Assembly (NCBI RefSeq): GCF_002854065.1
Contig: NZ_CP024147.1
Strand: one strand, 5' to 3'
DNA: 64,000 nucleotides
Source: Escherichia coli
GTDB lineage: Bacteria; Pseudomonadota; Gammaproteobacteria; Enterobacterales; Enterobacteriaceae
The stretch's first letter is position 1; the number at the start of each line of letters is the position of its first letter. Of this stretch, positions 53,674-58,546 are shown piece by piece. The notes under the pieces are model-generated. The model did not search any database, was not told the DNA's origin, and worked only from the letters and a program-made list of their open reading frames with translations. The position numbers and the translations under genes were made by a program.

Positions 53674-56600
53674 TTGAGCCAGGAATACACTGAAGACAAA
53701 GAAGTCACATTGACAAAGTTAAGTAGCGGCCGCCGCCTTCTGGAGGCGTTGCTGATCCTTATTGTCCTGTTTGCCGTCTGGTTGATGGCTGCCTTACTAA
53801 GCTTTAACCCTTCGGACCCCAGCTGGTCGCAAACGGCCTGGCATGAACCTATCCATAATTTAGGTGGGATGCCCGGTGCGTGGTTGGCAGATACGCTGTT
53901 CTTTATTTTTGGCGTGATGGCTTACACCATTCCCGTCATTATTGTCGGCGGTTGTTGGTTTGCCTGGCGTCATCAGTCCAGCGACGAATACATTGATTAT
54001 TTTGCCGTTTCGCTACGCATCATTGGCGTTTTGGCGCTCATCCTTACCTCCTGTGGTCTGGCGGCAATCAACGCTGACGATATCTGGTATTTTGCCTCCG
54101 GTGGCGTCATTGGCAGCTTACTAAGCACTACGCTACAACCACTGCTACACAGTAGCGGGGGAACTATTGCGCTGCTCTGCGTTTGGGCAGCGGGCCTGAC
54201 GTTGTTCACCGGTTGGTCATGGGTGACCATTGCTGAAAAACTCGGCGGCTGGATTTTAAACATTCTCACCTTCGCCAGTAATCGTACCCGTCGCGATGAT
54301 ACCTGGGTCGATGAAGATGAGTATGAAGACGACGAAGAGTATGAAGATGAAAATCACGGCAAACAGCATGAATCACGCCGTGCCCGTATTCTTCGCGGCG
54401 CGCTAGCGCGTCGTAAACGGTTGGCGGAAAAATTCATTAATCCGATGGGGCGGCAAACAGACGCTGCGTTGTTCTCCGGTAAGCGGATGGATGATGACGA
54501 AGAGATTACCTACACTGCACGCGGTGTGGCTGCCGACCCGGACGACGTCCTATTTTCGGGCAATCGTGCAACGCAGCCAGAATATGACGAATACGATCCA
54601 TTATTAAACGGTGCGCCAATTACCGAACCTGTCGCTGTAGCAGCTGCTGCTACCACGGCGACGCAAAGCTGGGCTGCACCGGTTGAACCTGTGACTCAGA
54701 CGCCACCTGTTGCCTCTGTTGATGTTCCACCTGCGCAACCTACAGTAGCCTGGCAGCCTGTACCGGGTCCACAAACGGGAGAGCCGGTTATTGCTCCTGC
54801 ACCGGAAGGTTACCCACAGCAGTCACAATATGCGCAGCCTGCAGTGCAATATAATGAGCCGCTGCAACAACCAGTACAGCCGCAGCAGCCGTATTATGCA
54901 CCTGCAGCTGAACAACCTGCGCAACAACCTTACTACGCTCCTGCGGCGGAACAACCTGTTCAGCAACCGTATTACGCAACTGCGCCGGAACAGCCTGCGC
55001 AACAGCCGTATTATGCCCCTGCGCCAGAACAACCGGTGGCAGGTAACGCCTGGCAAGCCGAAGAGCAGCAATCCACTTTTGCTCCACAGTCTACATACCA
55101 GACTGAGCAAACTTATCAGCAGCCAGCCGCTCAGGAGCCGTTGTACCAACAGCCGCAACCTGTTGAACAGCAGCCTGTTGTGGAGCCTGAACCCGTTGTA
55201 GAAGAGACAAAACCCGCGCGTCCGCCGCTTTACTACTTTGAAGAAGTGGAAGAGAAGCGAGCCCGTGAACGTGAACAACTTGCGGCCTGGTATCAACCGA
55301 TTCCAGAACCGGTTAAAGAACCAGAACCGATCAAATCTTCGCTGAAAGCACCTTCTGTTGCAGCAGTACCTCCAGTAGAAGCCGCTGCCGCTGTTTCTCC
55401 GCTGGCATCTGGCGTGAAAAAAGCGACACTGGCGACGGGGGCTGCCGCAACCGTTGCCGCGCCAGTCTTCAGTCTGGCAAATAGCGGTGGACCGCGTCCG
55501 CAGGTCAAAGAGGGGATTGGCCCGCAGTTGCCACGACCGAAACGTATCCGCGTGCCAACTCGTCGTGAATTGGCGTCTTACGGTATTAAACTGCCCTCAC
55601 AGCGTGCGGCGGAAGAAAAAGCCCGTGAAGCCCAGCGCAATCAGTACGATTCTGGCGATCAGTACAACGATGATGAAATCGATGCGATGCAGCAGGATGA
55701 ACTGGCACGTCAGTTCGCCCAGACACAGCAGCAACGCTATGGCGAACAGTATCAACATGATGTGCCCGTAAACGCAGAAGATGCAGATGCTGCGGCAGAG
55801 GCTGAACTGGCTCGTCAGTTTGCGCAAACTCAACAACAACGTTATTCCGGCGAACAACCGGCTGGGGCGAATCCGTTCTCGCTGGATGATTTTGAATTTT
55901 CGCCAATGAAAGCGTTGCTGGATGATGGTCCACACGAACCGTTGTTTACGCCAATTGTTGAACCTGTACAGCAGCCGCAACAACCGGTTGCACCGCAGCA
56001 GCAGTATCAGCAGCCACAACAGCCGGTTGCGCCACAGCAGCAATATCAGCAGCCGCAACAACCGGTTGCACCGCAGCAGCAATATCAGCAGCCGCAACAA
56101 CCGGTTGCACCGCAGCCGCAATATCAGCAGCCGCAACAGCCAGTTGCGCCGCAGCCGCAGTATCAGCAGCCACAACAATCGGCTGCACCACAGCAGCAAT
56201 ATCAGCAGCCGCAACAGCCAGTTGCGCCACAGCCGCAGGATACTCTGCTTCATCCGCTGTTGATGCGTAATGGCGACAGCCGTCCGTTGCATAAACCGAC
56301 GACGCCGCTGCCTTCTCTGGATTTGCTGACACCGCCGCCGAGCGAAGTGGAGCCGGTAGATACCTTTGCGCTTGAACAAATGGCTCGCCTGGTGGAAGCG
56401 CGTCTGGCTGATTTCCGTATTAAAGCCGATGTCGTCAATTACTCTCCGGGGCCGGTTATCACTCGCTTTGAACTTAACCTGGCACCGGGCGTAAAAGCGG
56501 CGCGCATTTCTAACTTGTCACGGGACCTTGCCCGTTCACTTTCGACGGTGGCGGTGCGTGTCGTTGAAGTTATTCCTGGCAAACCCTATGTAGGTCTGGA

Positions 56601-57780
56601 GTTACCGAATAAAAAACGACAAACCGTTTATCTGCGCGAAGTATTGGATAACGCCAAATTCCGCGATAATCCATCGCCATTAACCGTGGTGCTGGGTAAA
56701 GATATCGCCGGTGAGCCGGTGGTTGCCGATCTGGCGAAAATGCCGCACTTGTTGGTTGCGGGGACTACCGGTTCCGGTAAATCTGTCGGTGTGAACGCGA
56801 TGATCCTGAGCATGCTTTATAAAGCACAGCCAGAAGATGTGCGTTTCATCATGATCGACCCGAAAATGCTGGAGCTTTCGGTGTATGAAGGCATTCCGCA
56901 CCTGTTAACGGAAGTCGTTACTGATATGAAAGATGCCGCCAACGCGCTGCGCTGGTGTGTTAACGAGATGGAGCGTCGGTATAAACTGATGTCTGCGCTG
57001 GGTGTGCGTAATCTGGCGGGTTATAACGAAAAAATTGCTGAAGCCGATCGCATGATGCGTCCGATTCCAGACCCGTACTGGAAGCCGGGTGACAGTATGG
57101 ATGCCCAGCATCCGGTGCTGAAAAAAGAACCATACATTGTGGTGTTGGTTGACGAATTTGCCGACCTGATGATGACGGTAGGTAAAAAAGTGGAAGAGCT
57201 GATAGCACGTCTGGCGCAAAAAGCCCGTGCCGCGGGTATCCACCTCGTACTGGCAACTCAGCGTCCATCGGTTGATGTTATTACTGGTCTGATTAAAGCG
57301 AATATTCCGACCCGTATCGCCTTTACCGTATCCAGTAAGATTGACTCACGTACCATTCTTGATCAGGCTGGCGCGGAATCACTGCTGGGTATGGGGGATA
57401 TGCTCTACTCTGGGCCGAACTCCACGTTGCCGGTACGTGTCCATGGTGCTTTTGTTCGCGATCAGGAAGTTCATGCCGTGGTGCAGGACTGGAAAGCGCG
57501 TGGTCGCCCACAGTATGTTGATGGCATCACCTCCGACAGCGAAAGCGAAGGTGGTGCGGGTGGTTTCGATGGCGCTGAAGAACTGGATCCGTTGTTCGAT
57601 CAGGCGGTGCAGTTTGTCACTGAAAAACGCAAAGCGTCAATTTCTGGCGTACAGCGTCAGTTCCGCATTGGTTATAACCGTGCAGCGCGTATTATCGAAC
57701 AGATGGAAGCGCAGGGAATTGTCAGCGAACAGGGGCACAACGGTAATCGTGAAGTGCTGGCCCCACCGCCGTTTGACTAA
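53674..57780 (+). CDS. ftsK: DNA translocase FtsK (1368 aa), TTG start, long Pro/Gln-rich linker
   Basis: N-terminal membrane domain, linker repeats, C-terminal motor with Walker A GTTGSGKS and gamma domain; ggagag Shine-Dalgarno before the TTG. Confidence 0.95.
54884..55039 (+). repeat. Four tandem in-frame 39-bp repeats in the ftsK linker (13-aa unit [13 protein letters not shown])
   Basis: Directly visible tandem units 54884..54922, 54923..54961, 54962..55000, 55001..55039. Confidence 0.85.
55969..56239 (+). repeat. About 6.4 tandem in-frame 42-bp repeats in the ftsK linker (14-aa unit [14 protein letters not shown])
   Basis: Directly visible repeating cagcagccgcaacaaccggttgcaccgcagcagcaatat units with Q/P and one PV-to-SA variant. 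Confidence 0.85.
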
Positions 57781-57789
57781 TTAATGCAT

Positions 57790-57823
57790 TGCCGGATAAG
57801 GCGCGGTAGCGTCGCATCCGGCA
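57790..57823. repeat. REP element downstream of ftsK
   Basis: gccggataaggcg...cgtcgcatccggc palindromic unit. Confidence 0.6.
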
Positions 57824-57934
57824 CTCTATCAACTGAAAATTCAGTATTTTCTTCTTTCCTCAAGCTGATTATTAGCCTGGAATAGAGAGTAGAGGGAACT
57901 CCCGATCGGGAGTGACGTAATTTGAGGAATAATG

Positions 57935-58546
57935 ATGAAAAAAATTGCCATCACCTGTGCATTACTCTCAAGCTTAGTAGCAAGCAGCGTTTGGGCTGAT
58001 GCCGCAAGCGATCTGAAAAGCCGCCTGGATAAAGTCAGCAGCTTCCACGCCAGCTTCACACAAAAAGTGACTGACGGTAGCGGCGCGGCGGTGCAGGAAG
58101 GTCAGGGCGATCTGTGGGTGAAACGTCCAAACTTATTCAACTGGCATATGACACAACCTGATGAAAGCATTCTGGTTTCTGACGGTAAAACACTGTGGTT
58201 CTATAACCCGTTCGTTGAGCAAGCTACGGCAACCTGGCTGAAAGATGCCACCGGTAATACGCCGTTTATGCTGATTGCCCGCAACCAGTCCAGCGACTGG
58301 CAGCAGTACAATATCAAACAGAATGGCGATGACTTTGTCCTGACGCCGAAAGCCAGCAATGGCAATCTGAAGCAGTTCACCATTAACGTGGGACGTGATG
58401 GCACAATCCATCAGTTTAGCGCGGTGGAGCAGGACGATCAGCGCAGCAGTTATCAACTGAAATCCCAGCAAAATGGGGCTGTGGATGCAGCGAAATTTAC
58501 CTTCACCCCGCCGCAAGGCGTCACGGTAGATGATCAACGTAAGTAG
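57935..58546 (+). CDS. lolA: Outer-membrane lipoprotein carrier protein LolA
   Basis: Signal peptide [21 protein letters not shown]; recalled sequence. Confidence 0.9.

Follow-up and report, generated by a model that had tools for sequence, protein, structure and literature searches.

The perfect palindrome that precedes lolA in the window, as we call the whole 64,000-nucleotide stretch of Escherichia coli DNA under analysis, can with moderate confidence be read as a small stem-loop early in the lolA mRNA, i.e. as a 5'-proximal structural element that would fold in vivo and act on the level of RNA, on stability or translation. A G+C-rich stem of 6 bp closed by a 4-nt loop would occupy positions +8 to +23 of an mRNA made from an Rcs-responsive promoter directly upstream, and the same hairpin, HP2, would also form in longer transcripts reading through from ftsK. 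Selection would then bear on the paired stem, and not on the central GATC or on double-stranded DNA as a protein site; the GATC in the loop is accidental and specific to one lineage. Outer-membrane lipoproteins depend on LolA, their essential carrier in the periplasm, and the accessible literature on the lolA leader holds nothing beyond activation by Rcs. Reading the palindrome as a leader hairpin opens the post-transcriptional control of an essential envelope gene to testing and removes a tempting but unsupported story of Dam methylation. Most likely the palindrome itself is an uncharacterized but fairly ordinary leader element; a larger hairpin spanning the promoter, HP1, is the more unusual and the more interesting lead, as it would, if functional, make one sequence serve both as promoter DNA and as structured RNA. 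The features of the locus lie as follows.

57791 to 57826, unstranded: REP element after the ftsK stop codon (57778 to 57780), separate from the hairpin element
57836 to 57855, plus strand: block AAAATTCAGTATTTTCTTCT, conserved across genera
57841 to 57854, plus strand: putative RcsB box inside this block, centered near -43.5
57878 to 57883, plus strand: -10-like hexamer TGGAAT, 7 nt upstream of the start site, at conserved positions
57891, plus strand: A, transcription start site of lolA by Cappable-seq, 41 nt 5' of the first ATG, from a single dataset
57898 to 57913, plus strand: palindrome ACTCCCGATCGGGAGT, or hairpin HP2, from sequence, RNA folding and cross-genus conservation
57914 to 57923, plus strand: linker GACGTAATTT between hairpin and ribosome-binding site, conserved in the alignments
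57924 to 57928, plus strand: Shine-Dalgarno sequence GAGGA of lolA, with AGGA invariant in 68 sequences
57935 to 58546, plus strand: lolA coding sequence, from the RefSeq start (annotation of an identical sequence) and the list of open reading frames; an in-frame ATG also lies at 57932

The palindrome is its own reverse complement and carries GATC at 57904-57907, as the original prediction had it; self-complementarity is limited to the 16 bp, with the flanking A and G unpaired. Its placement about 20 bp before the lolA start also holds (21 nt from the palindrome end to the RefSeq ATG at 57935, 18 nt to the first ATG at 57932). The accompanying statement that it directly follows the REP element does not, as that element, at about 57791-57826, lies some 70 nt upstream. 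No other perfect palindrome of at least 16 bp occurs in the window; dinucleotide-preserving shuffles average 1.0 per 64 kb, with at least one in 57% of cases, so that by count the palindrome is not beyond chance. The case for it is its conservation, not its number. Its arm pattern, CTCCC-N3-5-GGGAG, is found once in the window against 0.05 expected, and it is single-copy, at one place per genome: a 201-nt query around it had one match each in 5,425 of 5,426 complete E. coli genomes, with ftsK and lolA as the annotated features. When the threshold is lowered to 14 bp, the whole window holds nine perfect palindromes versus 4.6 in the shuffles, an approximately twofold excess that 5% of the shuffles reach.

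Genes are arranged in the window in the order lrp, ftsK (53674-57780), lolA (57932/57935-58546), rarA and serS. The Cappable-seq supplement lists a plus-strand start site at position 936551 of U00096.2 (Ettwiller et al., 2016), and lolA has been placed at 936592-937206, with the printed sequence from 936592 opening ATGATGAAAAAA (Kim et al., 2012). Transferred to the window via lolA at 936592 and the K-12 sequence, which matches the window exactly, this start site is A57891, 7 nt after TGGAAT and 7 nt before the palindrome. The start thus lies upstream of the element, and not downstream, the outcome that the original prediction had named as speaking against a role in lolA expression. By this one start-site dataset, positions +8 to +23 of the lolA mRNA correspond to the palindrome, and HP2 sits within the transcript, close to its 5' end and ahead of the ribosome-binding site (57924-57928). 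TGGAAT was not detected by a strict consensus promoter scan. At the homologous position, 20 diverse Enterobacteriaceae carry TAGAGT, TACAGT, TACATT or TAAAGT, with T-A-n-A-n-T invariant, which, as far as alignments can tell, is what a genuine -10 element should show.

The reverse complement of AAAATTCAGTATTTTCTTCT agrees at 9 of 14 positions, and at 11 of 14 in Enterobacter, with the RcsAB-box consensus; together with the conservation of the block, this resemblance suggests a putative RcsB box at 57841-57854. Rcs is reported to induce lolA, according to PMC5978795, which cites Tao et al., 2012 for this, and lolA is down 1.48-fold in an O157:H7 strain with rcsB disrupted. Two further observations concern the -10 region: a Dcm site, CCTGG at 57876-57880, overlaps TGGAAT, and CCWGG methylation in the lolA promoter region is described as differing in a Salmonella preprint of 2026; and the soil isolate SC434 (L095:41-65) has an 11-bp tandem duplication, TAGAGAGTAGA, over the region from the -10 element to the start site, along with a GATT variant of the loop.

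Transcription also enters lolA from farther upstream. An older dataset, which speaks against A57891 as the lolA start, assigns the gene start sites 588 and 410 nt upstream of it, inside ftsK (936004 and 936182; Kim et al., 2012), and Cappable-seq adds another within ftsK at 936358 (Ettwiller et al., 2016); therefore, longer transcripts cross the palindrome as well. Among other sources of start-site information, SMRT-Cappable-seq has no entry, Mendoza-Vargas (2009) gives only a lolA primer, and lolA is absent among the entries listed in a K. pneumoniae start-site table. In Buttiauxella izardii (L067:1440-1503) and Enterobacteriaceae bacterium ESL0689 (L106:250-303), lolA follows the ftsK stop codon after about 10-30 nt, without a promoter region, and its expression must therefore come from upstream transcripts. 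The rest of the neighborhood varies among strains. The REP at 57791-57826 is strain-variable and matches the REP-derived Rfam family naRNA4 weakly on both strands; in strain SK1144 (L006:1-249, equivalent to about 57800), a transposase of the IS1397 family is inserted in the ftsK-lolA REP, with promoter and hairpin intact. ftsK itself measures 3990, 4068 or 4107 nt depending on the strain, and its Pro/Gln-rich linker is built of 39-bp tandem repeats (54881-55034, 3.9 copies; 55969-56237, 6.9 copies).

Several readings of the palindrome were discarded outright. A terminator or attenuator of ftsK would call for a U-tract after the hairpin, where the tail reads GACGUAAUUUG, and for a mapped 3' end: a consensus scan for intrinsic terminators found none on either strand of 57500-58100, and Term-seq tables contain no 3' end between position 934931, in ftsK, and position 938065, in rarA. 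On the minus strand of another locus (L075:1464-1480), a T-rich tail, CTCTTTGTTC, comes after the orthologous hairpin, which there scores as terminator-like; the E. coli sequence does not. Membership in the REP/BIME class was rejected as well, the Rfam model of REP-derived elements matching 57791-57826 and not the palindrome, which is single-copy. Finally, GGAACT at 57894-99 resembles the -35 element of a sigma-E promoter; no -10 of the TCnAA type follows at the right spacing, and GGAAC is unconserved in other genera.

What bears on DNA or RNA as the level of selection is the pattern of variation, both within E. coli and beyond it. Within the species, we counted how many of 5,426 records contain the 91-mer 57870-57960, or one of its variants, without mismatch.

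ACTCCCGATCGGGAGT (GATC): 3,856 of 5,426 records (71%)
GCTCCCGGTCGGGAGT (GCTCCCGGTC): 621 of 5,426 records
ACTCCCGGTCGGGAGT (ACTCCCGGTC): 258 of 5,426 records
ACTCCCGATTGGGAGT (ACTCCCGATT): 469 of 5,426 records, including the type strain ATCC 11775 and Nissle 1917

In the sampled variants, all SNPs of the leader fall on 57898, 57905 or 57907, that is on the outer base pair and the loop; the sole other SNP within the 91 nt is inside lolA, and the remainder is invariant. Either constraint is lifted at these three positions only, or mutations are unusually frequent in the loop. For all four variants the same hairpin is predicted, with energies of -8.7 to -9.0 kcal/mol, and the change of A to G at 57898 turns an A-U into a G-U pair, which is tolerated in RNA and a mismatch in a DNA dyad.

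These counts bear directly on the proposal that the palindrome is a methylation-sensitive element, in which the Dam methylation state of the central GATC, possibly read by SeqA, would alter lolA transcription. The GATC does sit at the palindrome center, 13-16 nt downstream of the start site, and besides its presence in most E. coli records it is found in E. albertii and E. whittamii. However, GGTC and GATT variants lack it in at least 1,348 of the 5,426 E. coli records (at least 24.8%), the type strain and Nissle 1917 among them, and it is absent in every genus examined other than Escherichia. A role of Dam is contradicted by this polymorphism within the species and by the absence outside the genus. 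The site also stands alone, the next GATC being read about 100 nt away inside lolA, in a window whose GATC frequency is unremarkable (282 versus 250 expected), and a literature search returned neither a paper linking lolA to Dam or GATC nor methylome data on this GATC. We therefore give the methylation reading next to no credence. The comparison across strains thus had a divided outcome, with the arms and the place of the element kept and the GATC itself polymorphic.

For the comparison across genera, we assembled 80 Enterobacteriaceae loci by a LolA-guided scan and 11 more from protein look-ups. In E. coli, the stem pairs 57898-57903 (ACUCCC) with 57908-57913 (GGGAGU) around the loop GAUC at 57904-57907; this fold has a predicted energy of -8.7 kcal/mol with a z-score of -3.2, and it is present in the predicted minimum-free-energy fold of the lolA leader. 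The same inverted repeat recurs at this position ahead of lolA in most of the 80 Enterobacteriaceae loci and in Erwiniaceae, about 20 genera in total, and in most loci it takes the form CUCCC-loop-GGGAG about 20 nt before the Shine-Dalgarno sequence. Across these genera, the arms are kept as CUCCC/GGGAG or UCCCUG/CAGGGA, the latter in Pantoea and Erwinia amylovora, with UCCCU/AGGGA in E. tracheiphila. Where the arms differ, pairing is kept: Franconibacter has UUCCCG/CGGGAA, Kluyvera has GCUC/GAGC, and in Salmonella a C-to-U change leaves a U-G wobble (CUCCU-G). The loop, by contrast with the arms, accepts almost any sequence of 3-6 nt (GATC, GGTC, CGTC, CATC, CGTT, GCGT, GTGT, GTAT and TGGC were seen). 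Izhakiella has a larger hairpin, with a self-complementary insert (CUCC-C-GCGCC-AUGAC-GGCGC-A-GGAG; -15.6 kcal/mol) that moves the arms 17 nt apart, so that the arm separations found among orthologous loci are 3, 4, 5, 6 and 17 nt.

This spacing weighs against a double-stranded operator at +8 to +23, at which a candidate dimeric regulator would repress lolA by blocking RNA polymerase. Such an operator would be well placed, a perfect 16-bp palindrome in the footprint of the initiating polymerase with strongly conserved half-sites, CTCCC and GGGAG. However, a dimeric DNA site of fixed geometry is contradicted by half-sites that retain their sequence and change their separation between 3 and 17 nt, and the natural variants (A to G at 57898 and C to U in Salmonella) lose the symmetry of the DNA and retain G-U pairing of the kind that only RNA allows. 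A literature search returned no regulator of lolA besides RcsB and no report of a protein binding to the palindrome. To our knowledge, no E. coli regulator has a motif matching the CTCCC/GGGAG half-sites. The protein-binding palindrome is thus quite improbable. Of the original proposal that the element affects lolA expression, there remains a cis element at a fixed, conserved place in the lolA leader, with both of the named mechanisms disfavored.

The case for an RNA hairpin is carried by a loop free to vary, arms at variable spacing, changes compatible with G-U pairing and the place inside the transcript, not by covariation statistics. A covariance model for HP2 (R1) aligned 73 plus-strand matches from these loci; in this alignment, which is fitted to the model, 85.8% of the cells are paired, the range for structure-fitted alignment being 85.8-93.8%, and three pairs show double changes, a number reached by 51 of 500 shuffles and thus not significant. 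On a plain MAFFT alignment, RNAalifold recovers only the three C-G core pairs of HP2. The weakness of the covariation follows from a CCC/GGG core that never varies, and the poor recovery from the loss of stem register by MAFFT when the loop length varies. Rfam 15 has no match on the palindrome in the window even at E<10 and no match at gathering score in seven orthologous loci, and nothing relevant was found in the literature on the lolA leader or the lolA mRNA.

Weak covariation, the chance expectation of one 16-bp palindrome per 64 kb, and the failure to find a 3' end, an Rfam family or a published role are all compatible with an inverted repeat that arose by chance and has no function of its own, kept because the short promoter and leader region is constrained or little diverged. 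Several lineages have moreover lost HP2 and kept lolA: it is absent in Trabulsiella, Mixta, Duffyella, Buttiauxella izardii and strain ESL0689, which makes it dispensable, and it is weak in Enterobacter and Leclercia (-3.9 kcal/mol). What an idle repeat does not explain is that complementary arms persist in two families while the intervening 3-6 nt turn over completely, that changes in the arms are compatible with pairing and the insertion in Izhakiella is self-complementary, and that Buttiauxella agrestis has a non-homologous hairpin at the very position of HP2. A functionless repeat therefore seems to us rather unlikely.

A more elaborate role for the same arms would be an RNA switch or a binding site for CsrA, in which the GGGAG arm belongs at times to HP2 and at times to a downstream hairpin, CGUC-GGGAGU-GACG, with GGA in its loop; this loop GGA and the GGA of the Shine-Dalgarno sequence, 16 nt apart, would together make a two-site CsrA target. 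Folding predicts this alternative for Klebsiella, Yokenella and related loci, and in Citrobacter and Klebsiella a conserved GACG after the hairpin is complementary to CGUC at the 3' end of the loop. Among the loci that we folded, L030, L045 and L052 and related ones form it at about 1470-1490 as (G)CGUC-GGGAGU-GACG(C), mutually exclusive with HP2 and with GGA in the loop. In E. coli, however, the GAUC loop makes the alternative pairing impossible, leaving 2 bp only, and the GGA sits in a stable stem instead of a loop; lolA is also absent from the CsrA CLIP-seq tables among the entries listed. On these model folds, control by CsrA or by a switch appears very unlikely.

Folding of the whole spacer brought up HP1, a larger hairpin directly 5' of HP2 in most genera. 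Its 5' arm, CUUCUGUC... in the -35 region, pairs with ...GACAGAAG, which runs from the -10 element to +1, so that HP1 spans the core promoter of lolA. Examples from the folds, and the weak counterpart in the window, are located as follows.

L038:1420-1460, HP1
L032:1420-1460, HP1
L075:1421-1465, HP1
L052:1411-1470, HP1
57856 to 57897 of the window, plus strand: weak E. coli counterpart of HP1, UUCCUC at 57856-57861 against GAGGGA at 57892-57897, enclosing the core promoter

The inner stems of HP1 vary by genus with complementarity kept, as in Kosakonia cowanii (CTTCTGTCACTCT/AGAGTGACAGAAG), L075 (TCCCACTGTAAG/CTTACAGTGGGA), L051 (GTCCACAC/GTGTGGAC) and Klebsiella (TTCTGCTG/CAGCAGA). Covariation is strong: 90.9% of cells are paired against about 50% in slid controls, and double-changed cells number 106 against 37.9 +/- 5.1 in shuffles, none of 500 reaching 106; these pair counts are biased upward, as the underlying alignment (model R2, or A8) was fitted to the HP1 structure. 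Alignment-free z-scores have a mean of -2.5, with values from -3 down to -6.7 in Kosakonia, Kluyvera and Klebsiella, among others; of 75 sequences, 58 fold more stably on the plus strand. HP1 is degenerate in Escherichia, Citrobacter and Salmonella, where it does not rise above shuffles (z about -1 to +0.7; -0.94 for the window). HP1 matches no Rfam family in the window, nor at gathering score in seven other loci. As its arms come from the -35 and +1 regions of the lolA promoter, it can only form in transcripts that start upstream.

These properties allow the tentative proposal that the ftsK-lolA spacer specifies a conserved, uncatalogued RNA element of two hairpins, of which the palindrome would be the 3' one; the spacer DNA would encode a promoter and at the same time a device of the read-through RNA. 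Read-through lolA mRNA would then be treated differently from promoter-initiated mRNA, for example by neutralizing the promoter pyrimidine tract with its complementarity to the Shine-Dalgarno sequence, or by directing processing. Indeed, the UUCCUC and UUCUUC sequences of the HP1 5' arm are complementary to GAGGAA of the lolA Shine-Dalgarno region, which suggests an insulating role, a lead from sequence complementarity and not a finding. An outright anti-Shine-Dalgarno switch was rejected, as the predicted accessibility of the Shine-Dalgarno sequence differs little and inconsistently between long and short transcripts (means of 0.55 and 0.66).

In its stricter form, in which HP1 and HP2 would act jointly on read-through ftsK-lolA transcripts and HP2 would have no independent role in the short mRNA, we regard the two-hairpin element as unlikely. 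It might serve as a site of RNase processing or stability, as protection from Rho, or as an insulator that locks the pyrimidine tract of the promoter off the Shine-Dalgarno sequence. The adjacency of the two hairpins in most genera, the covariation and z-scores of HP1, the start sites inside ftsK and the complementarity of its 5' arm to the Shine-Dalgarno sequence are all in keeping with such joint action, and where HP1 is strong, the predicted Shine-Dalgarno accessibility is equal in long and short transcripts. Set against this are the small and inconsistent difference in accessibility overall and the inflation of pair counts by the structure-fitted alignment. HP2 is also well kept in E. coli, Citrobacter and Salmonella, where HP1 is no better than shuffles, and Trabulsiella retains HP1 and has lost HP2, so that the two are separable.

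We thus return to HP2 as a leader element in its own right. It could present an obstacle that slows the 5'-end-dependent attack or scanning of RNase E and thereby protect the mRNA; alternatively, it could be a fixed fold that holds the downstream ribosome-binding site in a constant context. By analogy, mRNA protection or insulation of the ribosome-binding site is probably its job.

How does this element compare with known systems? With Dam-dependent switches such as pap and agn43/flu, and with the GATC clusters bound by SeqA, it shares a GATC near a promoter; its GATC, however, is single, polymorphic and downstream of the start, and overlaps no known site of the Lrp or OxyR type. Like 16-bp operators of the LacI/PurR type, it forms a perfect dyad overlapping the initially transcribed region, but its half-site spacing is unconserved (3-17 nt) and the changes that break its symmetry are G-U compatible. 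Intrinsic terminators and attenuators resemble HP2 in being G+C-rich hairpins of intergenic or leader regions, from which it differs by having neither a plus-strand U-tract nor a Term-seq 3' end. REP/BIME elements belong to the class of imperfect palindromes and one lies in the same spacer, 70 nt upstream, but the palindrome shows no sequence similarity to them, is single-copy and is syntenic in genera lacking REP. As with the GGA hairpins recognized by CsrA, the lolA leader has a GGA in the Shine-Dalgarno sequence and a second one beside a hairpin, 16 nt farther upstream; this upstream GGA is, however, inside the stem.

The remaining comparison is with the stabilizing stem-loops of the ompA hp1 type. 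Classic 5'-terminal stabilizers reportedly tolerate only about 0-4 unpaired nt, a rule that goes back to work on ompA; the seven nucleotides that precede the HP2 stem (AGAGGGA) do not fit it, if the analogy is taken at its word. While HP2 differs from these stabilizers in beginning 7 nt from the 5' end and in being absent from several related genera, it resembles them as a short G+C-rich hairpin near the 5' end of the leader, upstream of the ribosome-binding site, with a conserved stem and a free loop.
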